Positions 28,409 through 57,577 of a stretch of DNA of 64,000 bases are shown here, one piece after another; within the stretch, counting starts at the first letter, position 1, and every line of letters begins with the position of its first letter. A program made the position numbers and the translations under genes. Under the pieces are notes generated by a model. It made no database searches, was not told the DNA's origin, and saw only the letters and a list, made by a program, of their open reading frames with translations. Source of the stretch: Amphiscolops sp. MND2022 (lineage: Eukaryota); assembly GCA_964187785.1 (NCBI GenBank), contig OZ076409.1, positions 40,860,001-40,924,000 of the forward strand, given 5' to 3'.

Positions 28409-28691
28409 AAAAGGCGCTTACCTGAACATTTTAACTACACTGTATATTGCAGGTAGTAGTGACCTTTATCTGTTGTCTTCCATTGAAAATTGAAAAGGTT
28501 GTAATGCATAAATTACTGCAGGGTCTTTTATGTTTGCAAAGCGCTAAGTAATGAAAATTCTGATTATTAAATTTCAGACGATATATATGACTACTGAATC
28601 GTTATGAGTTGGTCTGAAATTTAGTTCTCGAATGTCCAGGGCAGAAACTCGAAAAGCTGATTTTACTCATTTACTGTCCTGCTTCAACTAT

Positions 28692-35121: not shown

Positions 35122-36623
35122 TGTAACGGCAACCGCTAAGCGTTTGTAACGTGACGATAGAGTGGAGGAGTGGAGGAACTGGTACCATGGTTATGGTCCG
35201 GGACAAACCACCATGATATCAGCTCACATTGTCCTCCTGAGGATAGAGGATTGCCGGTCCCGAGGAGGGGGAACCGTCTCTAAGGATCCCTCAAGCTTAT
35301 TATTAATTACACAACAAAAGTAAACAAATTCTAATAACCGAGTTCATAATTCTAATAACTTTTGCTGATTGGGCAACCTTGAGGTCTTGCTTCTTGCCAT
35401 CCACAGAGCTTGCATCGTCCACAAACTGCTGAAACAGAGCTAGCCCTCAAGCTAGAAAACAAGTACTAAAAAATGCACCTTGAAACTGAGCACCTCCTTA
35501 ATTCCATCATTAGAGTGCATAGGCAAGCTTTATTTGCTCAAAGCGCAACTTTGTGCTTTCATTACCTCGGATTCCATGGCCATACCTTTGACCATCAAAA
35601 TTGGCAAATTACGTCATATGTCCCGGATTCCACGGATTTCGTCGTGGATTCCAGCAACAAATGCTTAGCTGTGCGCACTGTCGGCATGCCGCTGTGTCCC
35701 GGATTCCACAAAAACGTAGGTTTTGCAAAATGAACCAGTCACATTGCAGAAATCATAAGTTTCCTGGATTCCACGACTTTGTGCTTGACGCAATTCGCGG
35801 CATCTCTTCTTGAATTAGAATCAAATGGATGACTGAACAAACATAATTTTCGTATAATAATTCGAAATGATTCAGACAAACACACCAATACTACACAAAT
35901 ATTTGTATTTTTCACTTTAGTACCAGTTTTGAACAAATTGCCAGATCATCACAATCTGCCTTTTTTAATGACGTGCTTCAATTTTGGTACCAGTCATGAG
36001 TATCTCTGTTCGTACTTTGTGACTTTTCGTGTCAATCAAAACAAGTTCCATCGATATAAAATTGATTTAATTTAAGTTCTTCTGCCTTTCCAATAATGAT
36101 CGCTCAAAAGAAGCGGACCAATCAGAGAGCAGCAGCAAACGTGTCATTATAGCAGCAGTATTGGCGTGGAATCCAGGACAAGCACTGTCGTGGAATCCAA
36201 GACACGCTTAACATCAAAGAGAAAATTGGTCCTGGATTCACGGATTTTCTCAATTTTCGTGTCCCGGATTCCACGAAAAGCAGCAAAATAGCTTGCCTGT
36301 GCACTGTAATGATACATGAATTTTAGAGAACCGATTTGTTTGCTCGAGATTTCACCAAAACTAAATTGGATCTTGGTAGCACTTTTTGAACGTCTAAAAT
36401 CTCTTTTACGGAGCCCGTGAGCTCCAAACGCACGTGGTTCTCATCGAAACTTTTTTCCACGGCAGTAAAATTTCAATTTGCGGCAAAGTTAAAAGATGTT
36501 CTCGATGAAACTTCTTTTCAGCGGAAAAACATTTGTTTAAAAGGAAGACAAGCTGTTTTTTGATCCTTTTTTGTTCACAGTTCGGCTTGCTTTGGGCAAC
36601 ACGCACTGATGGGTCTCGTTACA
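35122..36623. repeat. Interspersed repeat, LTR-like family, copy 2 (TGTAAC...GTTACA termini), interrupted by a CACTA-like element
   Basis: Homologous to 28692-29931 with an internal deletion. Inverted TGTAAC/GTTACA ends. No clean 4-6 bp TSD. Confidence 0.65.
35508..36311. mobile_element. Non-autonomous CACTA/CMC-like DNA transposon, copy 2 (internally shorter)
   Basis: Same CATTA...TAATG TIRs and GGATTCCAC subterminal repeats as 17251-18523. 2-bp TSD AT. Lacks ~470 bp of the centre. Confidence 0.8.
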
Positions 36624-37907: not shown

Positions 37908-40900
37908 CGTTCGAAACGGAGATCTTTCCATTCCGTGAACTCTGCATTCGTCATCACATGCACTCAGAAGGTCGAACAAAAAAACTTGGATCTCCTATTG
38001 GTTCAGATTTGGAAGCAAACGATCCCAAAAGATTAAAGAGTTCCATGCTTGTGAGAGTTTCGCCTTGACGTCACCTAGTCAAACGTCTCGCCCTAAAAAC
38101 AGAAGGGGAAGGCAATAACTAGAATTTACTCCGTTCTGACACTGTTTTAATGCCAAAATTCAATGCCTTTGTACCGGATAAGGATGATCAAACCTTGAAA
38201 AATCCACCAAGAAACTAAAATTTGGCTTCCAAAGAGTTTCAGTCATTATGACTACGTTTTTCCTTATCAAAAGTCAATGAAACCTGACCAAATATTAGAC
38301 ACCACATGATCATATAAACTTCATTTGTAGGCTTTTAGAAGTTATCTTAGCAGGCAATGCACATGCCTCAGAGTGAACTGCATCTCCATTTTCCATGAAC
38401 AAAATTAGATGTAAAAAATTGATGAGAGTTGTGAAATTTTGTTCACTAATATTTGTCTCACCACACGAGACTGTGCTAAGGAACTCCTTCAAAATTTCTA
38501 ATGCAATGATAATCTCCAAAGGATTACTTTGCTTTAGAGTCAGGGTTGTTTGAAATTAACTTGGACAGAGAATGCTCGAAGAAACAAAATTACGCATAAA
38601 CAAATACAAGCAAATACAATCCCACGGTCATTTGCAAGGTAAAGTTGAAATTCTTTTGATTGCTTTCCCTATTTTCTGCTTAAACAGACGAGGGCATGGT
38701 TCATTGTAGCACCGAAACGGCTCCACCCAATTCCCCGCAGCTTTCTTTTTTATTAAACAATCTGTATCACTGTTAAAATTGAGGCGCATTTGAAACATTT
38801 ATTATTCAAAACGTGGCGCTAGATTGTCTAGAGTTTGCAGAGTTGCAGAAAAATCATCGCGAAACTGAAAAAAAACGTCCCAAGATTCAATATTTCATTA
38901 TATATAAATGGGACGTAGAATAACGTTACAATTTACCATGTTACTGAGATGCAAAGAATGGTTCAATTTTCATTTCTTTGATTGGTGTGGGGGGGGGGGG
39001 GGTTACAGGGTGGTTGGTATAAGATTGTTACGAATTCGGCTGGAGGGTTGGAAAAGGGCTGGCAGGTTTCGAAAAGGAAGAAGAAAAGATTCGTTCAATG
39101 TGCCTCAGGGAAAATTTAATTGAATAAGCAACCATCCTTGAAAGTGCATGACAATACTGGACATTTAAGTATAGCCAAGGTCACTTTTTAATAAATTTGG
39201 TTGTATTTGTCCGAATGTGACCGCAAAGATTCTCATGCTAATTTTAGAAAGACTTATAGCATCCGGATGTAAGAATGATCTACGTGCATCAATGTATCAT
39301 TAAAAATGAGAATAAACTTTCCAAGGAAAATATTGACAGTTGAAAATTGCAAAATATATGAACCACTTACCAATTGTAATTTTCTGACGCATATCCCAGT
39401 CACTTCGTAGGGTGCTATTATTCGATGGCATCTTTATCATTAGATTATTCGATCTTTCTCATCTCTTACACTAATAAAAATCCCAAGAGTCCATCCAATT
39501 TCCAAGGAGCTCAATTGTTTCCTTGAATGACTTGCTATCTGAACCGTTCTTTTCCTTGGTCTTCTTTCCATATATGGTTATAAAAGCTCATTTCCACCAA
39601 TCAAAATTGAATCAGCTCGCACGGATATGTGAATAAATTATCAAGTTGTATTTTTAGTTTGTTCCTAACTCGTTATATCACAATTTTCAGCAATTACCTA
39701 GAAGTTCGTGCCTGGTTTGACTGGAATCCACTTCAGACAGCTCCTTGGTATCTGCATAAACAATCCCGCCCTTACTGTCGCCTAACCACCTTGAAAGAGA
39801 ACAATTTGTCCTGAATACAACAGTTTCTGAATACCCGAACATCTCGGGAAGAACATTTAGGAAAAACTGCATAATTGATTGAGTCGGATAACGAAAAGTG
39901 CATAAACTCTTCAACTTTGCAGATGATAAAAAGGAGGCTTCATTAGCAACTGTTCTCACCAAGTGTTCCTCAATATGTATTCTTTTGTAATCTTGAAGAA
40001 AGCTTTTTTTGATGAAAACTCGTTCATTCGATTTAGTATTCAAAATTCTCAGCCTTCAAGTTTTATCTTTCGTGCAGTTTCAAGAATAGGTTTTGTAAAG
40101 ATACAAATACGGCATTAAAACGTTCAAGATTCGAATAATCTGAATGCTGTTACAGTTTCTAGTTATGTTTACATGGAAAACATACACCCCAGTATGAAAG
40201 ATCTCAGAAATATGGTTACACCAAGACAATTCGATTTGCAATAATCATTGGTTCAGCTCTAGAGAGTTCATTTTTATACCTTACCAGCAAACTTTTATAT
40301 TCGAAAAAGTTCGAACTTTTTCCACTTTTTATGCAACAGAATCAGTTGAACCAAACTGTCAAGAAGTTTGCAGAAATTGGAGTGTTCTCATTACCAATTC
40401 ATCATATTTTATCAGCGATTCTTCTGAACTTCTGTTTTTCAAAGATTCTCCTAGCAATCACGAAAAAAAAATACAATCAAGAACGATTTGATTTGTTACT
40501 TATTTCCTGTTCACGTTGACGTTTAACCCATTACTTCAAATTGCACTTTTATCTACAGGTGTTTGTGACGCAACATAATCTTCGACACATTTTCGTTTTC
40601 TCGAGTTACTCTGCTCAATATGGACGCTCAGAGAAAACCAACGAATCAGGTAAGCTGCCATTGAAAGCGCTTTCATCGACTGATTTTTGTAAGTTTTTGT
40701 AAGACTGATTCAAAAAACATGATGCACGCAGATTCCTTTGCAATGATAGTTCATTGTGAATAAGTTTATGGCAGATTATCAAGTTGACCCTCATAAAACT
40801 GCCACAAATATTATGATAAGATTATACTGCAATCATATCAATCATGGAACTAATACAACGATTTGCATTACGAATCGTTGAAGAAAAACATGTCTTCGAA

Positions 40901-42043
40901 GAATGTTTATTCAGCAAAACATGGAAAGCGGCAATTATGTTACACAGATGTATCTTTTCACAGAATCTTTACACCCGCCTCCTGTTTTTGCAAAAACGTT
41001 TCTTTGTAACTTTTGCTATGTTGTAAATTAAAACTGGTCACTAGTTCATTTGAAGTTTCATTCGCGTTGTGGTACTTGATTGAACGGAGCTGTCATTTGC
41101 AATGTGCTAAGCTTTGTTTTTTTTTTCCAGTGTCAATGCACAGTATCTTCTTAATTCATCGTTTTTTATTGGAAAAACTATTAAAAATCTTAATTCCATT
41201 CAAAAAATTCTCAGAAATATTGAACTCAAAACATGGCACTGGTTTTGACGATGAAAGTGATGAAATGCGTAAATGTTGTTCGCCAGTTAATGAATGAATT
41301 TTATCGTTTTAAATTACCAAGTGCATCGAAGAACAACCATTTCTGGAAACAAAAAAAACTAGATTAACTCCTTTCTTCAAAAAAGTCGGCACATGCAAAC
41401 CTGAAGAAAATTTCACCTTATCAGCCAGTTGACGGCTATGAGCACATTCTTTTGAGAAGATTCTTTGGAAACGAATAAGCAACCTCGTTGCAAGTACAGA
41501 ATTTTGAACTCCCACTAATTGGGCTTCCCGAAAAAATCATTTTTTGAGCCCACATTGAATTAACTAAATATTTCAAACTTACAGCTGATAAAAATCGAGG
41601 TAACACAAGCGTTAATGATTTGAACTGGGCATTCGACACCAGAAGTCTTGATGTCTCAAACTGAAGGGGGGACTTTTTTGGGGTTTTTCAACATCCATTC
41701 TGCTGCAAAACTCCAAAAAAAATTGAATGGGGGACCCTTTGGCAAAACAAATTCCAAAAAAAGTCTCAGAGTGCCGAAAAAACTGAAAGGGGGATCTTTG
41801 GTCTCGTCCGGTATTGTATGTTACGCGGGAAACCTTTTTGGTTCAGTTCCCTGGGCTAATGGGGGCAATTTAAAATTTTGTAGAACTTTTGGTAGAACTA
41901 TTTTGGTTACTTCAGGTGTATCGAAAAAAAATTAAAAAGCTCTGACGAAAAGCCATGACTATAGTCGACTCTTTTCTCTAGAAAAGCGCCGACTAAAAAG
42001 ATCTCAGACTGAATATGGTCATACGAAAAACTTCGTCGGGTAG

Positions 42044-44118
42044 TGTCACAGCCGCCACAGGGCCGTGAAATAATAAGATCAGAGAGAACGCCAGAGGAAA
42101 GAAATGGAGAAATTAACCAAGAAGAAGCTAATAAAGCATCACAAACCTGAAAGAAAACAATCAACAAACAAACACCCATTGATATTGAACAACCCTGTAA
42201 GTGCATAATATTAATATCATCAACCCTCTGCAGTACCTAAAATACATAAATATGTAAATAATTAAATAATAATAACTTGTTGTAAATGTGATTTGTTTGC
42301 AGTAGATTGACCAATACGCTGATTGAAGTTATTCCAACCAGCGCACTGACCAGCCTACCGTCCCAATATCTGCGTAACAAAACACACTAATTCTCACTGT
42401 CCTTTTAATTAACCAATCAGCGCTAAGCGCGAATGTGCAGTATTAACTCAGTTACTCTACTCGTCAAGCCACCAGTCAACAAAGGCTGGGACGCACGCCT
42501 GGCAGCTCGATCGAATTAATCAAAGTGCTAATATATTAAGTGACGTCACGCGTGAAGTGAATACAAATCCAAAGCTAAGAAGAAGCTTAAATTGTGCAGT
42601 ATTCAATAATGAAGATAGAAAACGTAATATTTATAGTATGAGAAGGTGTGTTTGAAGATTTGTCGATCCTGATAATTGGGACGACCGCCGGGACGACCGT
42701 TTTAAATTTATAATCTGGGACGACCGCCGGGACGACCAACTTAAGTTGAATGAAGCAGTAAAGTATCGAGTACCACCAGATAGTAAATCACCGCACTAAT
42801 ATATGTAAATGTACTATCCTAATACTGTATGGAACGTCACAAATTGTCCAAATCTAGTGAAATGGTGATTAATCATAATTTGAACCGGGACGACCACCTG
42901 GGCAACCATTTAAATAATTAATGATGTACCAAGTTCGAATGAGTTATTAATAACGTTATGATGGTTATTAATTGTTTAAAATACCATGTTTGTTAATGGA
43001 ATGAAGTTTATTCCCCCGCAACCGCCTAATCAAGTGATATTAACCCCCCTTTTTTCATCTGTTAACCTATGCATTCACCCCGGTCACCCGACTTTATATA
43101 TGTGTTGTGTCTACCGGCCAGGCGCACGTGTTGTGTCTAATTTGTCAAGATGCGTCAATCCTAACCATCGATACATCAAAAGTTGTAATTATCATCTCTA
43201 ACTCTGTTGATTCATTAATTTGTGCAGTTGCCTTATACTTAATTGTCCATTTTCTCTTAAAGAAAATTTCATTTCCTTTTCCCGCTTCAGTAGCTAGGTT
43301 CATGAATTTCAGTGCCAACTTCACCTTCGGCGTCTTGAAAAGGCGGGGAATGAAGAAGAAAGGGACGCGGAATTGGAAAGCGGCAGGAAGTGAATTCCCA
43401 CTTTTCTTTAAAGTGGGTTGAAACTGAATGCCGAGTCCCGAGGAAGAGTACCTTATTTGGATTTCCCCGCTTCGGAAAGGACGCCGAGGTGAACAAGGTG
43501 TGAATTCACGCGCGGGGTTTTCTCCGCGTGTCTAGCGTAAAGTATAAATACCTGAAGCGGGATTAGGAAAAGTTAGTTGACAATTTGGTTTTTTCAAGTG
43601 CGTTTGATTAATCGTTCTCCGGGAATTTTGCTTTTGTAATAATCGTGTTAATTACTTTTGCTTAGTATAATTCCTTTGTTTCGAAAAACTTTGACAAATT
43701 ACTGAACTGAAGTCTCCATTACGTTTGTAACGACTCAAGTTTAATTGAAATATTGTCTCTCCACTATTTTGCAAGATGCCTGAGAAGTCTCAAAAACGAA
43801 AGTTGAGGAGTGACCAGTCGACTAGCCAGTTCGACATAGAGACCGCAAGCTCAATTAACGACGAAAACGTCGTACTATCGGAAAGGGATTTTGAAGACAT
43901 ATCTAATAAAATTGAGAATAAAATTTCCAAGCGTCTTAGAGACACTGAACTCAATCAACGTGAGATATTAAAACTGATCGAGAGCCTGTCGTCCAAAGTT
44001 GACAACCCATCAAGCGTCAATTCTGAACAAGGTTACTTGACGACCAGGACCGAGAATAGTGGAAACCCCACTGAAGAACTAGAAGAAGTTGGTTTATCTA
44101 GGAACGAGAGTTCCAACA
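42044..44118 (+). repeat. 5' LTR (2075 bp)
   Basis: TGTCACAGCC...TTCCAACA. About 16 substitutions versus the 3' LTR seen by eye, apart from one insertion/deletion. Confidence 0.97.
43542..43550 (+). promoter_or_regulatory. LTR TATA box
   Basis: GTATAAATA, ~30 bp upstream of an AGTTAGTT initiator-like site and ~230 bp upstream of the gag ATG. An equivalent GTATAAATA is in the related solo LTR at ~55526. Confidence 0.6.
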
Positions 44119-45194
44119 TGGTGACAGGAGTAATTAGCGAACCGACCTCCAGCAACACCACCCACCCCCGATCTTCGAGCCTGCCGCCTCCAAACCAGAG
44201 GCACTCCGACGAAATCATCGACAAGCTGTTAGAATCCCTGTACGCAACACAAAAACAGACAGCACAATTACCCCGTCTACCAAAAGCGCTTGCCACGACA
44301 ATGCCAACATTCGACGGTAAAAACGAGAAGTTTGAACTCTTCGAAGATTTGTTTCAAACAAGCTTGAAGGTCCATCCCCAAATAACGGAGCAAGAGAAAA
44401 TACATTATTTCCACTCCCTACTGCGAGGAGACGCCTTGCAAACCTTTCGGAACATGACCGAAACAACCAAAACCAACCTGAACGACATCATCGCCGGATT
44501 CAGACGACGATATGTAAACCCCCAGTCAATAGCCACTGCTAGGTGTAAGTGGGAAAACCTCACATTCGACCCGGCGAACCAAACATTCCAAGATTTCTTG
44601 GAGAACTACCAGAAACTTGCCCAAGAGGCATACGCCGACGATGCACCCCGCTTTATAGAAACCTCCTTCTACGCAAAAATGCCGATACATCTCAAAAGAG
44701 TGTTAAATCAAGCACGCCTTGAAACAGCATCATATGAAACGATGGTCCAGCACCTAGAGCGGGAGATGGAGCTCAACGGATTGGCAAATCCAGAATCCAC
44801 TACATTTACCGGCATACACAATGTCGAACCCGCCAACACATCCAACCAGGAGAGACACCCGAAAACTGCAAGCACGTGCTTTGGCTGCGGACATCAGGGC
44901 CACCTCCTCCGCAACTGCAGGAAGACAATCCGAGACAAACGGAACCAAAAACCCCCCAGCAATAACATCACCGACCCCTGCGAAACATGTGGCAAATTAA
45001 GCCACGAGACTAAAGACTGCTATTCTGGGGCGAACTGGGCAAACCGCCCTACATGGTGGAAAACGCCTAAACCAACAGGCGCCAACAGTATACCCCTACC
45101 ACAACAAACTGCACCCGAAACTATACAACAACCTCCAGCAAATCAGCAGCCACAAACCGTGGCACAACCACAATACCAGCCAAAAAACTACTAA
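43776..45194 (+). CDS. gag: Gag polyprotein (472 aa); first 114 codons lie inside the LTR
   Basis: Capsid-like region MPTFDGKNEKFELFEDLF...KIHYFHSLLRGDALQTF; two CCHC knuckles CFGCGHQGHLLRNC and CETCGKLSHETKDC. Confidence 0.95.
   Translation: MPEKSQKRKLRSDQSTSQFDIETASSINDENVVLSERDFEDISNKIENKISKRLRDTELNQREILKLIESLSSKVDNPSSVNSEQGYLTTRTENSGNPTEELEEVGLSRNESSNMVTGVISEPTSSNTTHPRSSSLPPPNQRHSDEIIDKLLESLYATQKQTAQLPRLPKALATTMPTFDGKNEKFELFEDLFQTSLKVHPQITEQEKIHYFHSLLRGDALQTFRNMTETTKTNLNDIIAGFRRRYVNPQSIATARCKWENLTFDPANQTFQDFLENYQKLAQEAYADDAPRFIETSFYAKMPIHLKRVLNQARLETASYETMVQHLEREMELNGLANPESTTFTGIHNVEPANTSNQERHPKTASTCFGCGHQGHLLRNCRKTIRDKRNQKPPSNNITDPCETCGKLSHETKDCYSGANWANRPTWWKTPKPTGANSIPLPQQTAPETIQQPPANQQPQTVAQPQYQPKNY
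44119..44131 (+). promoter_or_regulatory. Primer-binding site TGGTGACAGGAGT (tRNA-Leu-like 3' end; identity tentative)
   Basis: Directly follows the LTR terminal CA and begins with TGG, complementary to tRNA CCA. Confidence 0.85.
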
Positions 45195-45262
45195 AGCCAC
45201 GTCTTCGCTTCGGGGATTACACCGACTTCAGATACTACACCATCTCTGAACCCCCGAAGGAC
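45182..45262 (+). promoter_or_regulatory. -1 programmed ribosomal frameshift signal (A AAA AAC plus downstream stem-loop)
   Basis: XXXYYYZ heptamer at 45182-45188, in gag frame just before the gag stop. The -1 frame is open into pol. CTTCGGGG...CCCCGAAG and TTCAGA...TCTGAA stems follow. Confidence 0.85.
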
Positions 45263-47020
45263 TTCGACAAGGAATTGTTTATGGAATGCTCAGGTGAACC
45301 ATCGATCGACTGGCAGCGACGATGGCTCATAAGACGCATCATCAAGTTCAACAAAAACACCCTGGACAAACTCCCCTACCCAGACTGGTACACCCAAAAC
45401 CCCACCCAATACAACACAACACGCAGACCATTACTTCCCAGCTCCACACCGGAAACTTACATCTACGACCCCGACTTCGAATGCGACCCCTACTACAACG
45501 ACACTCTATATGACTCAACAAACCTTGTCTTCAGACAGTCAATCAACGTACCATTTCATGAATTCATAGCCAAAACCAACATGGACATCTCGACAACTCC
45601 AAAAAGGAAAGACGACCTCAGTCATACTCCCGAACCACAGGCTGAAGAAGAACACGACACAGAAATCACCGTGATCGTAACACCTCCAACGACTTCCCTC
45701 AAGTCAATCCTCAAACCCAACAATCAATCACCACTGGTTGACTTCCAGTCACCCACGAAACTCCCAGCCACCTCCAATGAAATCCGGGCAGCTATGACGT
45801 CGTCCCCCTCCAGTCCAGAGAGTCCTGAACATAAATACTCCACCCCTAAAACCCTGGTTGACGACACAAAAGCCGGGGACCAAACAACTGCAAGTCAACC
45901 CACAACAAAACCGAGAACTCGCCGCGTCAAACGAACTCTGACCTGCGAATTCAACCAGCAAACAGAAGCTAAAACAGCGACAAACAGCCCACTTATCACT
46001 ACCCAAACCTCAAGAGAAGAGCCAACCAATCTAGAACAAGATGAAGAATGGATTCAAACCAACAAACAATTGAATGAAATTGCAATTACAGACCCAGAAA
46101 CAAGCGAAAAATGCATACCAATTTTTTCGGCCATCAATCTGAAAAAGAAAAGGAAAATGCTCTTCGCCCCGATGGATTTCAACAACATTTCAGTCGATGC
46201 GCTTGTTGACTCCGGAGCACTCGTCAACTGCTTACCAGAAAGCGAATTTCAGAAAATCAAAGCAGTAAGCCCAGACAACATCCTCAAGGAAATGGATCCA
46301 CCAACATTTAAATTGCAGGTCGCAAACGGCGAGATAGAAACCCCCACGAAAACAGTTCAACTACAATTTGAACTAGGCGACTGGACGTTCAAAGAGACGT
46401 TCATCGTAGCCACAAAGATGACAGGACCCATCCTCGGACTAACGTTTCTCAAAAACAACAGCGCAATCCTCGACGTCAGTCAGGCCCTCTTACATTTCCC
46501 CCACCTGACATACGCAATTTCTGCAGACGATAACGAGACAATCTCAAGACACCATAAAGTCACTACCAAAACCCAACTCACCATCATGCCCGACCAGTGT
46601 GTAACAATCGAAGCCGGCATCAACCTACGTACCCTGACAAACACCACAGGAATCATCAACCCTACTGAACCATACTCCGGAGAACACCAACTGGTAGTAG
46701 CCAGCTCTCTATCAACGGTTACAAACTCCAAAATCGAAATCAGGGTTACCAACACATCTCCAAACCCATTCACCCTCAAAAAGAACACAAATCTCGCAGA
46801 ATTCACCATTCTATCCCCCCAGGAAGCCAAGCAACTCCACCCACTCAACTCTGCAGCCCTAAAGGTATTAGCAGAAGACGATTCCGAACAGGCGCTAGAA
46901 TATGTAAACGAACTCCTCAAATCGTCTGAAAAGCCCCAGACGGTTCAAAATTTCTGGTTCCCTACACCGGACAACCCGGGGAACGACCCCAACGGAAACC
47001 AAAGCAATCACCTTCGCTAG
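45188..47020 (+). CDS. pol: Truncated Pol: long N-terminal linker, aspartic protease, dUTPase-like segment; ends at a deletion junction (~46980) before RT
   Basis: ALVDSGALVNC (DSG at 46208-46216) and PILGLTFLK protease motifs; beta-rich segment TQLTIMPDQCVTI...IEIRVTNTSPNPFTLKKNTNLAEF; no YxDD, RNase H or integrase motifs follow. Confidence 0.9.
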   Translation, partial: LLKPRLRFGDYTDFRYYTISEPPKDFDKELFMECSGEPSIDWQRRWLIRRIIKFNKNTLDKLPYPDWYTQNPTQYNTTRRPLLPSSTPETYIYDPDFECDPYYNDTLYDSTNLVFRQSINVPFHEFIAKTNMDISTTPKRKDDLSHTPEPQAEEEHDTEITVIVTPPTTSLKSILKPNNQSPLVDFQSPTKLPATSNEIRAAMTSSPSSPESPEHKYSTPKTLVDDTKAGDQTTASQPTTKPRTRRVKRTLTCEFNQQTEAKTATNSPLITTQTSREEPTNLEQDEEWIQTNKQLNEIAITDPETSEKCIPIFSAINLKKKRKMLFAPMDFNNISVDALVDSGALVNCLPESEFQKIKAVSPDNILKEMDPPTFKLQVANGEIETPTKTVQLQFELGDWTFKETFIVATKMTGPILGLTFLKNNSAILDVSQALLHFPHLTYAISADDNETISRHHKVTTKTQLTIMPDQCVTIEAGINLRTLTNTTGIINPTEPYSGEHQLVVASSLSTVTNSKIEIRVTNTSPNPFTLKKNTNLAEFTILSPQEAKQLHPLNSAALKVLAEDDSEQALEYVNELLKSSEKPQTVQNFWFPTPDNPGNDPNGNQSNHLR

Positions 47021-50000
47021 GTGCACACGACACCCCAACAACCCACTCTCATGGAGGAAGGAAAAGCTGTTCTTAATGGTCGAAACCACTCGGCGATTCT
47101 TCCGTCGTAAATCCACCAAGAGCGATTTAAACTCGTTACTGGCACCCTCGGCTTCAACGGAGGACAGACGACCACAAGCCTGAAGGCAGGAGACCAATTC
47201 TCGGAAGAGAGACACTGTGTAAGCCTCGTCACCCTGAAGGAGCATATCAGGAGAAAGACAACTGAGACTTGAAGCCAACAAGGAAGTGGAATACGAGGAT
47301 ACGTTCAGCACTTTAAGGAACTCCATCAGGAACCCATGACATTCACGGAGGAAATTCCGCTTCACGGCATCGCTACATCCTTGCAACGCTTTGAGAACGA
47401 TTGGCTCACTCCTCAAACAGTCGACATACGCCACATTCGACCAGGTGCATAACGGACGACCAATATACAGGCTCCACTCCTCGATTCTCGGCAACTCTGA
47501 CAATTTCTTCACTTTACCCAAGAGACTCCAATAAAAAAAGCAGAACTCAGCGTAATTACGACAACTGTAATCGGTCACACTCTCGTCACCTTGTTTTTCA
47601 AAATTAGACTGGAAACAAGACACCAGCACATGCAACAAACTCAAAAGAGGCAACACGTATGAGTCCGAAACGATCAACTGACCTAAATCAACCGGGGTTT
47701 TTCCCCGAGGTGGAGCTGTAGCACCGCTTTCCTTGAGAACAAGCTTCACGTCTTCCCAATGGTCGACCAACTCTTCCAAAACGGCACCCAAGACACTGAA
47801 GGGAATCTCTCGCTTGCGAACACACTGACGCAACTCCACTAAACCCAGCATCCAGGGCTGATAAACAGCTTTGTTGAACTGTAAAACCAGGAAATCCAAG
47901 ACTGCAAAAGGATCCAAGGAATGGGCACCAACCATGCCCGCTTCACGCACATGACTCTTGAAGACACTCGGAGAATACTCTAACAAGGACAGAGGTACAG
48001 ACCGATCACGAGCACGACACCACTCACTGAACACATTGAACAAGGTGGGCGAACGTCCGAGTAATACAACTGGAGAATGAGTCTCAGGGAGGATTGCTAG
48101 AACACGCGACAAACACAGAATTTCGGCATCACAGATTCCTGACGAATAGGGTTCCCACAACAGTCACCTCACGAACGTGACTACCGACACAACACCGGAC
48201 AATGCAGCAGACTCCTTCATCCTCCTCGCGAAACAAGACGCTGAAATGTGAGTCCTTACACCAGGAGTACACTCGACGAAGCACACGAGGATACAAGGTC
48301 TGACAGACTATCACGAGCGACTCTGTTTTGCTCCATGTAGCCTGAGCATACGACGACTCGACCGGGATAGTGACCCGAAATTGATTCCACAGCCGCCTCA
48401 AAAAGCTGTGTGACCCGCCACTCCGAAGGAGCTCGAATAGACCACCCACAAGCGTCGCAGAAGGAACGTTAGAGACGACACCAACTAGAGCATCCACTTC
48501 GTCTTCCCTGAAAGGATTCTTCTTACCCAGGACAACGGGGGGCGTCTGCTCAATTTCCGCACGCAACTCACTGGAAACATCGGCGACCTTCACGGGGTCA
48601 AACTGAGAGGTGTAAATCACATCTTCATGATCTAATCTGTATCGTCGATCCTTCAGATAGTGACTCTTGCGACTGAAGTGTCGCCAGATTTCAGGCTCAC
48701 CCCGACTCAGGAAAGAAATGTCCTTTTGACAAATTGCACAATTAAACCCGTTCGGGTTCTTATCTGACCTCTGGCTGACGAATAACTGGGGAATAGCATG
48801 CCCAGCCATTTCTCTACGCAGAACATGTCGCTCAGTCTGCCTCTGCTTCCTCCGCTCATACTTCGCATAGAGTCTCCGTTTCGTCTTCTCTTCATCGTCC
48901 AACTGACTGGAATCCCGATGCATCTGTATGCCTTTTGACTTCAAGAGTCGCACGATTCGATCCAACTCTAAATAATAAAACCAAGATGAAACCCACTAAT
49001 AACGAATTACAACACGCACATACGAACCAACGATCAACAGAACACTACGACAGAACATGACTAACAAAATTGACAACAACAAAACAAGAACTTACGACGT
49101 GACAGTGACCTCTCATCACCACGAGATTGCGACCGCTCCAGACGCACAGCAGCCCGACCATATGCCAGCACCTGACTGGATGAGAGACAAATCGCCCCAG
49201 AAGGCACATCGGATAATCCAGCTAAAATACAAAGAAGCAATGAAACCCAATGCACCACGCCTTCACAAAGACAAACCTACTTGTCGACCTACGAAGATGA
49301 CAACAAAGCATAATACCTTTGCCCCATTCATTGTGCAATACAGACTGCTCCAGACCCTCGGCGGGACGACCATGTTGAGTCCGACTGTGCCTCGTCTTCG
49401 AACCACTAGCCCCATCGTCTGCGAAAACATCAGGCGTCACACCGGGCGATCCACTGGATATAAGACCCAAAAGGTCGAAGACGTTTTCTCCTTGAGGGAT
49501 GGGTGTCTGAACTGCAACAAAAATGAAACCGATAACGCGAGCTTAGATATTCACCCAAGACCAACAAAAGAATTCCTACCTTCACCCTCCGAGTCTGGGA
49601 ATCGAACCACAGCAATCCCAGGGCTGTCATCTGAGCTCGACACATTGGGACGCACCTTCTTGGAAGCACCCTCCCCAGCATTCGACATCAGCCGCTTACT
49701 GCGCCGAGACCCAACAGAGAGAGAAGTTGTCCCAGGAGCAAAATCCACGTCATTAGAATCGTCGGAGGCTCCTGAAATCAAAGAAAGGTAGATGAAATGA
49801 CGCGTCTGTGTACTAGCATTAAATTGTTAACTGGCCATTAACAAATAGCTAAGAAACCCACCGTGTTGGTCATGAAGATAATCTAAGTCATGCCGCGCAT
49901 CACTCCCAGAAGAATGGATGGAAGCATCATCATCATCACTAGCATCGACAGCACCAACTTGTGCGGCATCAGCGGCATCGTCAGAGTCGTCATCATCACT

Positions 50001-50297
50001 GTCACCAGTATCGATCTCACCGAAACCAGCAGCCCTTCGTGGAGCCGCCCCACTTACTTCACCCAACTGTCCATCGACCGGTGCCGCAGTATCCACAGAC
50101 ACACCGCCTTGACACACCCCATCTGAGCCCTCCACTATTTGTAACTGACCCTCGGACGCTTCACCTCCTTCCTCACTCTCACCGTCACTGTCCACACCAA
50201 CTCCTCTTCCACGCAAAGATTCACGCTCACTCTCAATCACTCCAATATCCCGAGACAGGGCAAAACGAGTAGCATCCTCGTCTGTCGAATCCGCCAT
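46980..50297 (-). CDS. Spliced antisense gene: acidic N-terminus + BED-like C2H2 zinc finger + degenerate hAT-transposase-like domain (~980 aa; one frameshift at ~48162; 3'-truncated)
   Basis: Exons 50297-49862, 49771-49580, 49511-49317, 49221-49096 and 48967-~46980. Introns 49861-49772, 49579-49512, 49316-49222 and 49095-48968 are all GT-AG and phase 1, joining five separate track ORFs in frame. Finger CAICQKDISFLSRGEPEIWRHFSRKSH. hAT-like blocks recognised by eye. Confidence 0.8.
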
Positions 50298-50576
50298 AAC
50301 TTGACAAAACAATCTGAAATAATACCATTCAATAGAATAACATCGAAGACGTGGCGTAAAACCAACGCTAATATTATTATTACAAACTAATAGTATGACG
50401 TAATGGAAGTCATTCAGTCTGCCAGCTGAAAACTTTCCCATTCATGCAAGCGGCGTGAACAGAAGAAAAGAACGGAATTATCATTCAATTACTCGACCAT
50501 TCCGCAGAACAGCCGCTCAGCATTACTTACAAGTATTACTATTTATTGCATACAATTTATTTACTCATCGGATCAA

Positions 50577-51227
50577 ATGAATTCATCGACACTCAATTCC
50601 TCAACCGATTATTTCATTTTGGACCGCGACCAAGACGCTGCCCCAGTAAACCCCTGCGCACATTCAACACCTAAAGCGCTTGGTGATAATTGCGAAAATA
50701 CCCAGTCACTGATCATTGAAGACATTTACGAGATTATCAATACTGGGACAGAACATATTGTCCTTTACCATGAGTCGGCGCCGATATCTATCCTAGAAAC
50801 AGCCCAATCAGACACATTACCATCCAGGAAATTTACAAACTTCAACCCAATTATCCCGGATGACGAATTCATGAGCCCCCCGCGAGACTACGAACACATG
50901 GATAATTGGCTATACAGGCCACACGATGGGTCAATCAGCCCAATATCCAGCGACTCCAGTTCCATCGGTTACATCTCAGGAAGCGACTGGACAACCGATT
51001 CGTCCTGGATGTCTTATGATTCATTGGTACAGTCTATATTTCAACCCCCCATCTCTTCCCCATTCAGGCCAATTTCACCACTTCTTCCCACAATGGACGT
51101 CTCTCATCAAAGCCGGGGACTGTCACAGCCGCCACAGGGCCGTGAAATAATAAGATCAGAGAGAACGCCAGAGGAAAGAAATGGAGAAATTAACCAAGAA
51201 GAAGCTAATAATGCATCACAAACCTGA
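50577..51227 (+). CDS. Accessory ORF (216 aa, Ser/Pro/Asp-rich, unknown function) crossing the PPT into the 3' LTR
   Basis: ATG-initiated open frame whose last ~35 codons are LTR U3 sequence. No signal peptide or transmembrane segment evident. Confidence 0.55.
   Translation: MNSSTLNSSTDYFILDRDQDAAPVNPCAHSTPKALGDNCENTQSLIIEDIYEIINTGTEHIVLYHESAPISILETAQSDTLPSRKFTNFNPIIPDDEFMSPPRDYEHMDNWLYRPHDGSISPISSDSSSIGYISGSDWTTDSSWMSYDSLVQSIFQPPISSPFRPISPLLPTMDVSHQSRGLSQPPQGREIIRSERTPEERNGEINQEEANNASQT
51109..51120 (+). promoter_or_regulatory. Polypurine tract
   Basis: AAAGCCGGGGAC immediately precedes the 3' LTR TG. Confidence 0.75.
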
Positions 51228-53338
51228 AAGAAAACAATCAACAAACAAACACCCATTGATATTGAACAACCCTGTAAGTGCATAATATTAATATCATCAA
51301 CCCTCTGCAGTACCTAAAATACATAAATATGTAAATAATTAAATAATAATAACTTGTTGTAAATGTGATTTGTTTGCAGTAGCTTGACCAATACGCTGAT
51401 TGAAGTTATTCCAACCAGCGCACTGACCAGCCTACCGTCCTAATATCTGCGTAACAAAACACACTAATTCTCACTGTCCTTTTAATTAACCAATCAGCGC
51501 TAAGCGCGAATGTGCAGTATTAACTCAGTTACTCTACTCGTCAAGCCACCAGTCAACAAAGGCTGGGACGCACGCCTGGCAGCTCGATCGAATTAATCAA
51601 AGTGCTAATATATTAAGTGACGTCACGCGTGAAGTGAATACAAATCCAAAGCTTAGAAGAAGCTTAAATTGTGCAGTATTCAATAATGAAGATAGAAAAC
51701 GTAATATTTATAGTATGAAAAGGTGTGTTTGAAGATTTGTCGATCCTGATAATTGGGACGACCGCCGGGACGACCGTTTTAAATTACCATGAGTCGGCGC
51801 CGATATCTATCCTAGAAACAGCCCAATCAGACACATTACCATCCAGGAAATTTACAAACTTCAACCCAATTATCCCGGATGACGAATTCATGAGCCCCCC
51901 GCGAGACTACGAACACATGGATAATTGGCTATACAGGCCACACGATGGGTCAATCAGCCCAATATCCAGCGACTCCAGTTCCATCGGTTACATCTCAGGA
52001 AGCGACTGGACAACCGATTCGTCCTGGATGTCTTATGATTCATTGGTACCGGAACGTCACAAATTGTCCAAATCTAGTGAAATGGTGTTTAATCATAATT
52101 TGAACCGGGACGACCACCTGGGCAACCATTTAAATAATTAATGATGTACCAAGTTCGAATGAGTTATTAATAACGTTATGATGGTTATTAATTGTTTAAA
52201 ATACCATGTTTGTTAATGGAATGAAGTTTATTCCCCCGCAACCGCCTAATCAAGTGATATTAACCCCCCTTTTTTCATCTGTTAACCTATGCATTCACCC
52301 CGGTCACCCGACTTTATATATGTGTTGTGTCTACCAGCCAGGCGCACGTTTTGTGTCTAATTTGTCAAGATGCGTCAATCCTAACCATCGATACATCAAA
52401 AGTTGTAATTATCATCTCTAACTCTGTTGATTCATTAATTTGTGCAGTTGCCTTATACTTAATTGTCCATTTTCTCTTAAAGAAAATTTCATTTCCTTTT
52501 CCCGCTTCAGTAGCTAGGTTCATGAATTTCAGTGCCAACTTCACCTTCGGCGTCTTGAAAAGGCGGGGAATGAAGAAGAAAGGGACGCGGAATTGGAAAG
52601 CGGCAGGAAGTGAATTCCCACTTTTCTTTAAAGTGGGTTGAAACCGAATGCCGAGTCCCGAGGAAGAATACCTTATTTGGATTTCCCCGCTTCGGAACGG
52701 ACGCCGAGGTGAACAAGGTGTGAATTCACGCGCGGGGTTTTCCCCGCGTGTCTAGCGTAAAGTATAAATACCTGAAGCGGGATTAGGAAAAGTTAGTTGA
52801 CAATTTGGTTTTTTCAAGTCCGTTTGATTAATCATTCTCCGGGAATTTTGCTTTTGTAATAATCGTGTTAATTACTTTTGCTTAGTATAATTCCTTTGTT
52901 TCGAAAAACTTTGACAAATTACTGAATTGAAGTCTCCATTACGTTTGTAACGACTCAAGTTTAATTGAAATATTGTCTCTCCACTATTTTGCAAGATGCC
53001 TGAGAAGTCTCAAAAACGAAAGTTGAGGAGTGACCAGTCGACTAGCCAGTTCGACATAGAGACCGCAAGCTCAATTAACGACGAAAACGTCGTACTATCG
53101 GAAAGGGATTTTGAAGACATATCTAATAAAATTGAGAATAAAATTTCCAAGCGTCTTAGAGACACTGAACTCAATCAACGTGAGATATTAAAACTGATCG
53201 AGAGCCTGTCGTCCAAAGTTGACAACCTATCAAGCGTCAATTCTGAACAAGGTTACTTGACGACCAGGACCGAGAATAGTGGAAACCCCACTGAAGAACT
53301 AGAAGAAGTTGGTTTATCTAGGAACGAGAGTTCCAACA
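51121..53338 (+). repeat. 3' LTR (2218 bp) with 265-bp templated insertion replacing 122 bp
   Basis: Colinear with the 5' LTR at offset 9077 up to 51785 and at offset 9220 from 52051. Includes the Gag-leader ORF copy 52996-53343. Confidence 0.97.
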
Positions 53339-53729
53339 GGTAGTCAGTGAACGGACGTTTCGAATACGTCAAATTCGGCAGCAAAGTTCAGAAAGAACAT
53401 TTTTTGGCCAATTCTAATTTGCACAGTATGAAAATTTTGAAATTGGGTCTTTACAAATCTACAGTAGTTGCAGTGATGATTCGTTTGAGGAGAAATCATT
53501 GGGAACCCGAGTTGAAAACATTTTTGACACTAATCGTAGTTTTAGATCAAATTATCATTATCTGAGATTGGTTGCATGAAGTCTATATGATTTACATTTT
53601 ACTGAAAGTATGGTTTCATGCATAAAAGTATACACTTATAGACGAAAAATTACATGATTCTATGTATGAAATATAAGATAGCATGTAATCCTCACAAAGT
53701 TGGAAATGGGTAAGTTTCACTTGTTCTAC

Positions 53730-56089
53730 TGTCACAGCCTGCTCACGGCCTGGCATGAGGTTGTCGACGGTGGAAAATCCGAAGGGGACATGGAGGTAAT
53801 TTGAGATTTCCGAAGTCTTACTTTAACTGGTAAATACAAAACTGACCTAAAATAAACAGTGACTTGAAATGCAAAATATACGTCTATTCAACGGAATTTT
53901 CAAGCGAAACTAGACACGAAGAACAAATGTGCTAAAATGATTTTTCACGCATTTCCGGTAAGACGTTTCAGCCACGTCAAAATAGTAACATTCGCCACCT
54001 GAAAACTAAATTAAGACACGTTTTAAAGCAAAGAGAGCATAAGCCAACCTAAATGAAAACATATCGAAAATCATCTCCTAAAGAAATATCAATCAGGTCT
54101 AAAATAGAAAATACACTGAGATTGCACGCCGAAGAAACTAAGCCTTTTCTAAGAAAGGCAGCCTAATTACTCTTTGAACAGCAATTAGTGTGGTTTAGGA
54201 CGTCAATATTGCGCTGAGCAAACAAAGCGGCGGAAGAAATAAGAATACATGTAAATTTGTCGTCAGTAGGACGCAGACAAGTTTGAAGGTATACCAATTG
54301 ACGTCACTGCCTCGCCTATACGTACCAGAAAATCATTCCAATTATCCGCCTATACTAATAGCATTACTAGAAATCATTCCAATTTACCGCCATTGTGACG
54401 TCACTACGCCGGCAGCTAGCTAGAAAATCATTCCCAAAATACTCGTCAGCATTGCGTCAAACTAGTCAAAAGCTCAGTTCTTCCAAAATAACTCGTCAAC
54501 ATGACGTTGACAAGTTTATGAAATTGGACAATTTAGATAAATTTGCTCTATCAAGCTGAGGAAAATACGCTAGTACAACGTTAAGGATCAGTTGAAATTA
54601 GCTGTTTTGGTTTTTTGCAGGATGGTAATTTGAGCACCCAACTTAATGAATTTAATATGAGGGAAATGTTTGCTCTGATCAGCTTTAATTTAAAGGAATG
54701 AAGTGTAACAGATTGCGTCCATTTTACGTTGGCCAAAATGTTGATCACCTAAAATTACAGTAAGAAACGATTTTATTCGAGATTTTTCGGTATTCCCTAG
54801 ACGTGAAAGTCACAGTTTATGTTCTTGTTGGTAGACAAGGTGCTATATTTTATTACATGAAGTATTTTTACACGCCAAGTGTTTTGAGATCAGGATTTGC
54901 TACTCATCAATCTATACCAGCCCATTTCGTATGGTATTAACCATTGTTTCACAAATATAATTATTAACACTGAAATGTATTAGTATCATGTTGCTACATT
55001 TAAAGTTTTCCTGTTGCTGTTAATGTTATGTAGTAAACTTGTCGCACTTGTTCATGATGTGTATATTCCAAATTGAGAATTTGATTTCGTTTCCAACGAA
55101 AAGAGTGAGTCCAAATCCATTAAAAATATTGAAAATTTTGTCCTAGCATCGCTCAAGCAATCGAAGTTCAGAAACTAATCATATTCCTCAAGTTAAAATT
55201 CAATATCAGGTATTAGTTGTTCACGTCAGCGTCATCTCAGCGTCAATTTCCCGCGAACCAAAACAGTAAAACAGGGAATCATTTCCGGTTTGACAGACTG
55301 AAGTAATATCTACTTCCTGTTTGGGAGGAAACAAAAGGACTCCGGGATGAAATGATATGTTCGTGAAAAGTGACTAATATCAAAAATTGTAGTCGTGTCT
55401 TAAAATTTGACGAAATGTCGACGCAAATTTGGGTTATTAATGATTTTTTCATCGACGAAACAGGAAATGACTAATTGTTCGAGGAAAATTAGGGATTTTA
55501 GTTGTGATCAAATGATGCTGGGAGGGTATAAATACGGTAGAATTTGATGATTAAGGGACTAAGTCTTTTCCAATTGCGAAAATCGGTTATCTCATAACTT
55601 ACTCAATTTTCCAATTTTCAATCTCAACTTTGTTGAAAACACTTTGAAAGTAAATTGAATTCTTCAAAATCAATTCTCTCTACATCGAAATGTCTAGCAC
55701 GAGAAGCCAGAAAAGAAGAAACACTCAGAAAGAAGCTGTTGAAAACGTAAGTGAAAATTTTGTTTCACCAGTTGTAGCGGAAAACTCTTGTCCTTCAGAC
55801 CAAGAGATAAACGTTGCAGGCCCGTCTAAGCCAAAATCTCCAAGGATCGAAAGCAGTCTTCTAGAAAGTTTAAGGGCCTCTCTGAAAGAGGAGATTACGT
55901 CCGAGATTAAGAATCTCCTTGTAGAATCTCAAAAGGAGATGTTGAAGCTACTTAAACCTGAAACAAGGGAAAACGTCAGGGAAAACGTCGAAGAAGAAAC
56001 GGAGAACGAAACTAGGAGTTTCTACACCCCTACTAAATTGGTTAGAATCAACTCCTCTCAAAACAATGATACGAACATAAGTCGTAACA
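53730..56089 (+). mobile_element. Solo LTR (2360 bp) of a related Gypsy family
   Basis: TGTCACAGCC...CGTAACA with perfect 5-bp TSD TCTAC (53725-53729 and 56090-56094). Shares its first 10 bp with the 42044 LTR. TATA at ~55526. Confidence 0.92.
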
Positions 56090-56130
56090 TCTACTGTAAG
56101 TTGTATTTGAATAACTGTACTTTTAAATGA
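55690..56130 (+). CDS. LTR-encoded Gag leader peptide of the solo LTR, reading ~13 codons into flanking DNA
   Basis: MSSTRSQKRR...LKEEITSEIKNLLVESQKEMLKLL resembles MPEKSQKRK...IENKISKRLRDTELNQREILKLI. The frame is open to the LTR end at 56089. Confidence 0.7.
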   Translation: MSSTRSQKRRNTQKEAVENVSENFVSPVVAENSCPSDQEINVAGPSKPKSPRIESSLLESLRASLKEEITSEIKNLLVESQKEMLKLLKPETRENVRENVEEETENETRSFYTPTKLVRINSSQNNDTNISRNIYCKLYLNNCTFK

Positions 56131-57337
56131 AAACTTCAATTTGAGGTGCAATATGGAGCGGAATTTTTTGGTAGCTTCTTCGAAAGCTGTGGCATGTAAA
56201 GGGGCTTAACAGTCACGTGATGTATGAATCAATGAATTTCATTTGTTGAAATTGATACTTCGCATTCAAACTTTTGCTATTAATATCAAGTTCGAAGGAA
56301 GTTTTCAAATCATTTTCATAACCATAAAGAAGGGTAGATAACTTAGCATGAGTATAGTTCTTTCAAATTCGATTGTGTCAACGAAGATGATGTCAGAATG
56401 CTCTCTTGATAGTTTTTCATTCCTCAGGCTTCAAAAAAATAATCAAGAAATCGAGTTTTATATCTGTAATTCAAATTTAGCATCATAAATGTTCATCATT
56501 CTCATAAAACGCCCCAAACAAAACGTTATAGTCAAAAAGCTAAATCAATTTCAGACATGATGTTGATCTTTATGTGTGTTTCTCAATGTATTTTTGAAAT
56601 TTTTTGGAATGAATTTAGATAAAATATCATTTTTGTTAATTCATCTTTCGTTTGTTCAAATAATTTTTCTAAAGTTCCACATATTCTCAATATTAAGTCG
56701 AATATTTTGACCCAATCTGTTCATGAAGTTCATGAAATTTCAATTTTGTCAGAAAATGAAGTGAAATTTATCTTTAAAAATTATATGTGGAAGTTTAAAC
56801 GTTAATGAATGCAAACTATCTGAAATTTTACAACTTGTTCTATTTTACTAATGGTTCTCGCACAGAAGACAGAAAACATCTCAATGCCACTGCGATTCTT
56901 ATGTCAGTTTTGCGTAATGATGCTAAATTCTCCTCTCATTTGAAATTTGTGTCTCGAAGGACTTTCGCGATAGATCTCCCGCCTTCGTTATTGCCCCCCT
57001 GATGGAGATGTAGAAATGAAAACTTTCATTTTTTCAGTGAAGTTTTCCTTGCATGGCTACATTTGCAACTAACTGTCACATGGGAATAATGGGAAGAGAG
57101 CTGAGACATTAAAAGCCTTGCTTTGTTTTTCTCTTCGTTAGACTCCACGTGACTGCTATAAATTCAATCAAAAATGTCTGAAAAGAGTTGTTAAAATTTC
57201 CCGGAAGCGATTGAAAGGATTCAGTTTAAACATTCGATTGTGCATTTTGCATTTCATTTTTCAAGTCTTGATGCGTCCTATGGGTCGATGAGTTATCAAA
57301 AAATCTTCACGTGAAAACATTATAAAAAGCATTTCTC

Positions 57338-57577
57338 AGAAATTTCATTGGTGTACGAAGTGAGTCACCACTGGTTTAGAAATTTCATTGGTGTACGAAG
57401 TGAGTCACTTATGGTCTAGAAATTTCATTGGTGTACGAAGTGAGTCACTTAGGGTCTAGAAATTTCATTGGTGTACGAAGTGAGTCACTTATGGTCTCGA
57501 AATTTAATTGGTGTACGAAGTGAGTCACGTATGGTCTAGAAATTTCATTGGTGTACGGAGTGAGTCACGTATGGTCT
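57338..57577. repeat. Minisatellite, 6 x 40 bp
   Basis: Unit AGAAATTTCATTGGTGTACGAAGTGAGTCACTTATGGTCT with exact 40-bp period. Confidence 0.97.

Follow-up and report, generated by a model that had tools for sequence, protein, structure and literature searches.

A Ty3/Gypsy retrotransposon family carrying an antisense, intron-containing gene whose predicted product resembles hAT transposases at the level of fold

The 64,000-bp stretch of Amphiscolops sp. MND2022 DNA analysed here (the window; GenBank assembly GCA_964187785.1, contig OZ076409.1, positions 40,860,001 to 40,924,000) holds, at 42044-53338, a single insertion of a Ty3/Gypsy-type long terminal repeat (LTR) retrotransposon family. 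We consider it quite probable that this family carries a five-exon antisense gene, located between the pol stop codon and the 3' LTR, which encodes a non-catalytic accessory protein with a hAT transposase fold. A sequence-only reading of the window had proposed that an antisense gene derived from a hAT-like DNA transposase was captured and is maintained by the retroelement. The antisense gene in five pieces that it described is confirmed, and its interpretation is supported at the level of fold and by family-wide conservation.

All four splice junctions quoted in that reading are present in the sequence (CACG/GTGGGT..TTTCAG/GA, GAAG/GTAGGA..TTGCAG/TT, AAAG/GTATTA..TTTTAG/CT and CGTC/GTAAGT..ATTTAG/AG). 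On the minus strand, the gene starts with an ATG at 50297-50295 and runs through exon 1 (50297-49862), which encodes acidic, Gly-rich, low-complexity sequence, exon 2 (49771-49580, 192 nt), which encodes a basic RRSKRL...KKVR cluster, exon 3 (49511-49317, 195 nt), exon 4 (49221-49096, 126 nt) and exon 5 (48967-46968), which in the window is truncated at its 3' end, with approximately 174 codons missing, and carries a frameshift near 48164. Introns 1-4 are 90, 68, 95 and 128 bp long, and all are phase 1 GT..AG introns with pyrimidine-rich 3' ends. The lengths of the three internal exons are divisible by three, and the joined frame remains open for 596 codons, until the frameshift. The D/E/G-rich N-terminus, basic helix and C-x2-C-x16-H-x5-H finger noted earlier are all found in the product, in which approximately 316 acidic, Gly/Ser-rich residues precede the basic helix and then the finger, encoded within exon 5 (48740-48660, minus strand). 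The predicted full-length product is approximately 1,180 residues long.

Maintenance of the gene by the element was evaluated with a survey of 11 genomic copies taken with flanks, together with coordinate tables, and with a genome protein search that gave 11,336 first-look candidates, of which 53 were scored. By identity, the 53 scored copies comprise type A (97-100%), type B (74-77%), one copy at 66% and type C (62-63%). Six diverged copies have gene nucleotide identities of 78-81% and approximately 74%. The same arrangement, with gag-protease followed by 4.6-8.5 kb, the opposite-strand gene and an LTR, is seen in all three full-length A-type siblings and in all six diverged copies. One type-C element taken in full has this layout as well, and six further type-C copies, paired by coordinates, lie 3.94-3.96 kb from matches to a protease-end probe and on the opposite strand. 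Types A, B and C all retain the four GT..AG pairs at corresponding sites, as do two decayed intermediate copies. The last-exon open reading frame (ORF) is uninterrupted, at 862-910 aa, in 4 of the 11 copies taken with flanks (862-905 aa in siblings of the window copy), and the last exon is free of stop codons in 30 of 36 scored type-C copies.

Exon-1 length differences between types A and B are multiples of three (57, 21 and 3 nt), and alignment gaps over introns 3-4 mostly are not. The proportion of nonsynonymous differences (pN) in exon 5, by the Nei-Gojobori method, is 0.16 for A versus B and 0.25 for A versus C, at a proportion of synonymous differences (pS) of approximately 0.75, which is saturation. 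The ratio of nonsynonymous to synonymous rates (dN/dS) is 0.09-0.39 across exons 1-4 (0.26-0.39 in exon 1, 0.32-0.39 in exon 2, 0.14-0.26 in exon 3 and, against diverged copies, 0.09-0.16 in exon 4). Between A-type and B-type elements, pN and pS are 0.08 and 0.60 in gag, and 0.05-0.06 and 0.51-0.52 in pol. Given that pN is well below pS, together with the splice sites and the length differences, the frame is a protein-coding gene under purifying selection, and the introns behave as non-coding sequence, intron 1 excepted. The dN/dS comparison was one that the sequence-only reading had called for, and its view that the retroelement maintains the gene holds up: position, orientation and intron structure are constant across copies, selection is purifying, and no terminal inverted repeats (TIRs) or 8-bp target-site duplication (TSD) flank the gene.

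The hAT-like origin is supported by predicted structure. An AlphaFold2 model of the last-exon protein, built without templates from alignment A1 (23 sequences), has a mean predicted local distance difference test score (pLDDT) of 74, and of approximately 90 over residues ~210-770. In the model, a beta1-beta2-beta3-alpha-beta4-alpha unit precedes a large helical region, and the RNase H-like core is interrupted by a large all-alpha insertion domain, which is the Hermes-type fold. A Foldseek search of the PDB puts Hermes hAT transposase in each of the first 11 listed rows (ranks 1-12), at E 2e-5 to 5e-4 and probability 1.0, with matches of approximately 600-660 columns and 12 matches at E <= 1e-3; the next entry has an E-value of 7.5e-3 and a probability of 0.16. 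The Hermes match spans approximately 400 residues, from Hermes 116 to 609, with the RNase H-like core and the all-alpha insertion domain both covered and their order preserved. When 48,161 chains were scanned exhaustively, Hermes stood 6.7 Z-units above the next chain, and the runners-up included other DDE transposases. Among the viral models of BFVD, the sole match at E <= 1e-3 is a Pandoravirus protein named hAT-family. An ESM-Atlas feature search returned only hAT-type clusters, ZBED-type nearest, at weak scores under the tool's reliable level (0.77-0.82). For the C-terminal dimerisation region, the structural alignment reaches Hermes residue 609, the end of the PF05699 region, and Pfam gives no match. 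As far as the model goes, the hAT inference of the sequence-only reading is right at the level of fold.

That reading had argued from short sequence blocks in the order expected of a hAT transposase, and this argument could not be verified: Pfam, a PDB profile search and hhalign give no hAT signal. Pfam on the ORF pieces of the window matches only zf-H3C2, at E 0.078. As a positive control, two true hAT ORFs from the same genome match Dimer_Tnp_hAT (PF05699) at 4e-17 and 5e-17, and in 25 aligned true hATs the SFTSDIWT, RDNAxN, CxxH, TRWNS, LDPRFK and SERLFS motifs are visible. Searched with the family profile, 1.84 billion representatives yielded 858 relatives at E <= 1e-3, most of them fragments. 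The protein family is thus widespread in public assemblies, though without a name; a scan of JGI metagenomes with the family alignment (tblastn) found no relative.

The Cys and His residues, along with many others, are invariant in the family down to 45% identity. In 35 aligned members, the finger shows no variation at either Cys or at the second His and retains the first His in at least 90%, down to approximately 30% identity; the C-x2-C-x16-H-x5-H spacing presumably fits the BED finger pattern. In aligned true hATs, D260 is present in at least 90% and D328 and E655 are invariant. In the family (28-34 sequences), columns 243-250, at the end of model strand beta1 (241-247), are S/A/T/hydrophobic or variable, and columns 304-311, which follow beta4, read G-C-S-P-T-L-F-N; neither set of columns has a conserved acidic residue. 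Judged by secondary-structure position, the family seems to have lost the first two residues of the DDE triad. Residue 672, a conserved D/E within a V-[DE]-x-S-x-S-G motif, may match the SER.FS glutamate, the third catalytic residue, when placed by motif order and secondary structure. The modelled protein is thus likely to be a catalytically inactive hAT derivative.

Several results weigh against a hAT-derived accessory gene. The fold evidence is one predicted model from a shallow alignment of 23 sequences, and its TM-scores are modest (TMt 0.45-0.55). Pfam finds no family for the antisense protein in full sibling ORFs and no hAT-type family in the 23 alignment members (hmmscan, E <= 10), which match four unrelated families at E 0.029-2.8, nor any in 20 further distant representatives. 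The precomputed Pfam field is empty in 34 of 34 homologues from a word index (44-98% identity). The family profile searched against PDB sequences gives two chance-level rows only (E 0.078 and 2.2), and hhalign gives a probability of 0.2 for the family against one hAT and again against 25 hATs. The BED identity of the finger is weakened by the lack of a Pfam zf-BED match, and the finger model (pLDDT 81) has no significant fold match, with the ZBED1 BED domain (2ct5) at rank 48 and E 4.2. The DDE assignment follows secondary-structure position, and the accessory role is a proposal. The gene is also far more diverged between types than gag-pol (pS approximately 0.75 versus 0.52-0.60), and its co-evolution with the reverse transcriptase (RT) is not simple, with modules that recombine.

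These points bear most directly on the idea of a genuine, element-maintained gene whose product is an orphan protein that resembles Hermes through convergence or a prediction artefact. The absence of a hAT signal in Pfam, the PDB profile search and hhalign fits that idea, as do the shallow alignment, the range of TMt and the ESM-Atlas scores. However, a match of some 400 residues to Hermes, with core and insertion domain in order and well clear of the next chain, was obtained from a model made without templates, and a second structure library yields only a hAT-named protein; we therefore regard an orphan origin as unlikely. That the protein is instead an active transposase or nuclease, giving the element a DNA-level activity such as excision or target cleavage, would be in keeping with the whole hAT core fold being kept and with acidic residues conserved elsewhere (for example E272, E282, E612 and D/E 672). 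It is very unlikely, given that no conserved acidic residue stands at the beta1 end or after beta4, where the first two catalytic Asp would be, that the SFTSDIWT, RDNAxN and SERLFS motifs of true hATs are unmatched and that the cassette is without TIRs.

A simple nested hAT DNA transposon, inserted into one Gypsy copy and unrelated to retroelement biology, deserves consideration in a genome this rich in true hATs (at least 150 PF05699 matches listed among 2,215 candidates), and nested insertions are common. Yet in all full-length and diverged copies examined the gene occupies one position with one orientation, those elements have their own TSDs, and purifying selection acts across types. No inverted repeats of at least 40 nt occur within 38000-58000, and one full-length sibling has a single inverted pair near the boundaries, 14 nt long at 86%, between 8-bp flanks that differ. 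Compared by eye, the 150 listed PF05699 places and the listed gene copies have no position in common. The sequence-only reading had named bounding TIRs with an 8-bp TSD, and absence from siblings, as the signs of such an insertion; neither TIRs nor an 8-bp TSD bound the cassette, and siblings carry it. On the copies compared, a simple nested insertion is excluded for the family, and we give the idea almost no weight; ancient capture through a DNA-transposon insertion is a possible route by which the family acquired the gene. An antisense unit acting only as RNA, for example as a source of double-stranded or small interfering RNA, with an incidental reading frame, has a parallel in the regulatory antisense transcripts of retrotransposons discussed in PMC7264820. 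We hold it to be just as improbable as a nested insertion, against the long open frames, pN far below pS, coding length differences in multiples of three and invariant Cys/His; an RNA-level role alongside coding is possible. The preferred reading is, accordingly, a hAT-fold accessory gene borne and maintained by the Ty3/Gypsy family.

The host element has the anatomy of an LTR retrotransposon. Direct repeats at 42037-44122 and 51114-53341 are 99% identical (99.0-99.1% LTR versus LTR), and the same 5-bp TSD, GGTAG, lies at both LTR flanks (42039-42043 and 53339-53343). The 5' LTR (42044-44122, plus strand, 2079 bp, TGT...ACA) has ends common to the siblings and holds the gag start codon. It is directly followed by a putative primer-binding site beginning with TGG, TGGTGACAGG... 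(44123-44140, plus strand). The gag ORF (43776-45194, plus strand), whose ATG is within the LTR, matches Pfam DUF1759 (4.6e-9) and Retrotrans_gag (2.2e-5), and Cys-His knuckle motifs are seen in its translation. The pol remnant (45071-46977, plus strand) retains the aspartic protease only (gag-asp_proteas, 2e-7), with RT, RNase H and integrase deleted. A polypurine-tract-like AAAGCCGGGGAC (51109-51120, plus strand) directly precedes the 3' LTR, both here and in two siblings, and the 3' LTR (51121-53338, plus strand) is likewise TGT..ACA. Two siblings are flanked by 5-bp TSDs of their own, CTGAG and GGTGA. In full-length siblings, pol is one 1828-aa ORF with gag-asp_proteas, RVT_1 (3e-22), RT_RNaseH, Integrase_H2C2, rve and Integrase_p58_C, in that order, and by these matches the protease-RT-RNase H-integrase arrangement corresponds to the Ty3/Gypsy organisation. 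The DUF1759 match in gag had raised a BEL/Pao assignment, which we rejected as pol has RVT_1, RT_RNaseH and Integrase_H2C2 and no Pao-type families. Rfam gave no matches at E <= 1 over 42000-53400.

The copy in the window is dead, through a 4.57-kb internal deletion and a frameshifting 2-bp indel in the antisense gene. In three A-type loci taken with 20-30 kb of context, window segments 42042-46977 and 46968-51785 map 4.57 kb apart; what the window lacks is RT, RNase H, integrase, a spacer of approximately 400 bp and the final ~174 codons of the antisense gene. At the deletion junction (46968-46977), the homology blocks share 10 bp. On the gene side, the match between the window and near-identical copies at other places in the 1.07-Gb genome stops at 46968. 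As a 201-bp probe across the junction is contiguous in 1 of 40 scored matches, the window itself, the deletion is private to this insertion as far as scored. The gene end at 46980 given by the sequence-only reading is therefore not natural, the window copy being cut at 46968 by the deletion, and the tail of the ORF (46967-46895, minus strand) is antisense protease sequence. Its placing of the gene between pol and the polypurine tract is correct for full-length siblings; in the window, pol is a protease-bearing stump only. Compared with an intact sibling, the gene region of the window differs by 22 substitutions, by two 2-bp indels, of which one lies in intron 3 and the other, at approximately 48164, shifts the frame, and by the truncation; the frameshift is private to the window copy. 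A second private rearrangement lies in the 3' LTR, where 266 bp (51784-52049), a 100% identical duplicate of 50765-51030, replace 122 bp (42709-42830) found in the 5' LTR and in the LTRs of siblings; the duplicated segment is part of an ORF upstream of the LTR (ORF3, below).

Comparison of elements indicates that the antisense gene is exchanged between backbones. The type-B gene product has 75% aa identity to type A, and the type-C product only 62% protein identity. The pol of one type-C element shares 98.5% identity with type A along a 3.8-kb stretch that ends shortly after the pol stop; at locus C3, a gag-pol 99.4% identical to type A is joined to a type-B gene. These mosaics (L021/L020, G000:C3:52193514-52213513; L034, G000:C11:19384000-19393999) have breakpoints just past the pol stop and near the gene ATG. 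With at least three synonymously saturated alleles (75% and 62% aa identity) on gag-pol backbones at least 98.5% identical, and three such alleles on one backbone, recombination of the 3' module follows. A gene tree tracking the RT tree, which the sequence-only reading had suggested looking for, was not borne out, as near-identical gag-pol carries deeply diverged gene types. At a separate locus (L013-L015, G000:C13:6690428-6720427), two family members stand in tandem with sequence shared at the junction, and the second unit begins inside pol directly after a partial LTR. This locus looks like a recombinant or tandem array, not two independent insertions.

Non-coding parts of the module are conserved as well. 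Intron 1 (49772-49861, minus strand) is unusually conserved, with 85-90% identity between types, compared with 46-57% for introns 2-4 (window and A-type versus B-type copies). The block 49772-49918, which adds the end of exon 1, has 84-90% identity between gene types although synonymous sites of the exons are saturated, and it holds a GACGCGTC palindrome. Intron 1 gave no RNA-fold signal (z +0.78 and +0.42) and no Rfam match, and the block may be a DNA-level regulatory element. Upstream of the gene, a divergent intergenic region of approximately 280 bp (50298-50576), with blocks that are conserved in all three types, is a candidate bidirectional internal promoter. A TTTCAG just 5' of the ATG is a possible acceptor of an intron in the 5' untranslated region. 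On the other side, ORF3 (50577-51227, plus strand, approximately 216 aa, Ser/Pro-rich) ends within the 3' LTR and is arranged divergently to the antisense gene. Its frame is open in copies of types A and B, has a dN/dS of approximately 0.17-0.21 and has no Pfam match.

Taken together, the following mechanism may be proposed. The gene is antisense to the genomic RNA, in which its splice signals would not be read, and the introns would be copied through each retrotransposition cycle; it is because of this orientation that introns can survive reverse transcription, as orientation and retention in all copies examined suggest. Transcription would probably be driven by the internal promoter of approximately 280 bp, shared divergently with the sense ORF3. 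The exon-2 basic cluster, which is kept in types A and B and not in C, resembles a nuclear localisation signal, and the protein is most likely a non-catalytic nuclear DNA-binding accessory factor for the element, not a transposase. For its function, we give about even chances to transcriptional control, tethering or target choice, and counter-silencing taken jointly.

Several known systems resemble parts of this arrangement. The Hermes/hAT superfamily shares the fold, but here no sequence or profile similarity is detectable, the first two catalytic Asp positions are non-acidic, there are no TIRs or 8-bp TSD, and neither Pfam zf-BED nor Dimer_Tnp_hAT matches. The gene described here also differs in its four introns, some 316 extra low-complexity residues at the N-terminus and an LTR-retrotransposon host. 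Domesticated hAT-derived host proteins such as the ZBED family have retained their core and DNA-binding domains and probably function without transposing. They are single-copy and recognisable by Pfam (PF02892, PF27041, PF05699), whereas the protein here is multicopy, element-borne and unrecognisable by sequence. Among retroviruses, the antisense gene of human T-cell leukaemia virus (HTLV) encodes a spliced bZIP factor. Such retroviral genes are alike in being accessory genes opposite gag-pol near the 3' end with an antisense promoter, and an HTLV antisense promoter is mentioned in PMC7264820. In HTLV the promoter is in the 3' LTR and the origin is unrelated; here the candidate promoter is internal and intergenic.

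The closest positional parallel is in plants, and the statement of the sequence-only reading that no such architecture was described stands in part. According to PMC7264820 and PMC11963269, Ty3/Gypsy elements of the plant Tat lineage (Retand, Grande, RIRE2) have antisense ORFs (aORF-3R) between pol and the 3' LTR; no animal or hAT-type case was found. Specifically, a full-text literature search, with most subscription journals and Repbase outside its coverage, found no animal LTR retrotransposon with a hAT-like antisense gene. The plant ORFs encode TRP28 (PF04195), PMD or SMC-like domains, for which a nuclear or DNA-binding regulatory role is proposed, and transcription from its own promoter was shown for Grande gene23 (PMC7264820, PMC11963269 and PMC4408406). 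The extra gene has the same position and orientation and is present in most family copies; the plant proteins are without a hAT fold, and the host here is an animal-type genome. Pfam at E <= 10 gives no TRP28 (PF04195), PMD or SMC-like match in 23 members of the present family. The word "intron" is absent from the main text of PMC7264820 and PMC11963269, whereas the gene here has four.

Elsewhere in the window, 2131-4921 and 4927-7714 form a 2.8-kb tandem duplication of 98.4% identity, and 57298-57617 is an array of about eight 40-bp tandem repeat units with 72-95% identity. Segments at 17250-18523, 28688-29932 and 35119-36611 are dispersed repeats of an interspersed element (84-92% identity).

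Extra genes of LTR retrotransposons are the raw material of retroviral accessory functions, of which animals offer few known examples besides those that are env-like. In this family, a class I element has apparently taken over an entire class II transposase fold and passed it on with its introns, and by the first-look count the gene is kept under selection among thousands of candidate fragments. The family offers a natural test of how an antisense spliced gene survives reverse transcription and a case in which a domain passed from DNA transposons to retroelements; Ginger-type elements represent the reverse direction. The diverged alleles on near-identical backbones are well suited to asking what accessory proteins do, and the case illustrates that fold-level searches can recover ancestry missed by Pfam and profile-profile methods. 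More tentatively, and at somewhat less than even odds, an abundant animal Ty3/Gypsy lineage may have recruited a hAT-derived, multi-exon antisense gene as an exchangeable module, swapped recurrently under conflict, for example over counter-silencing or integration-site choice. If so, a protein fold of class II would serve a class I element in regulation or targeting, and the introns would be inherited via reverse transcription owing to their place on the non-transcribed sense.

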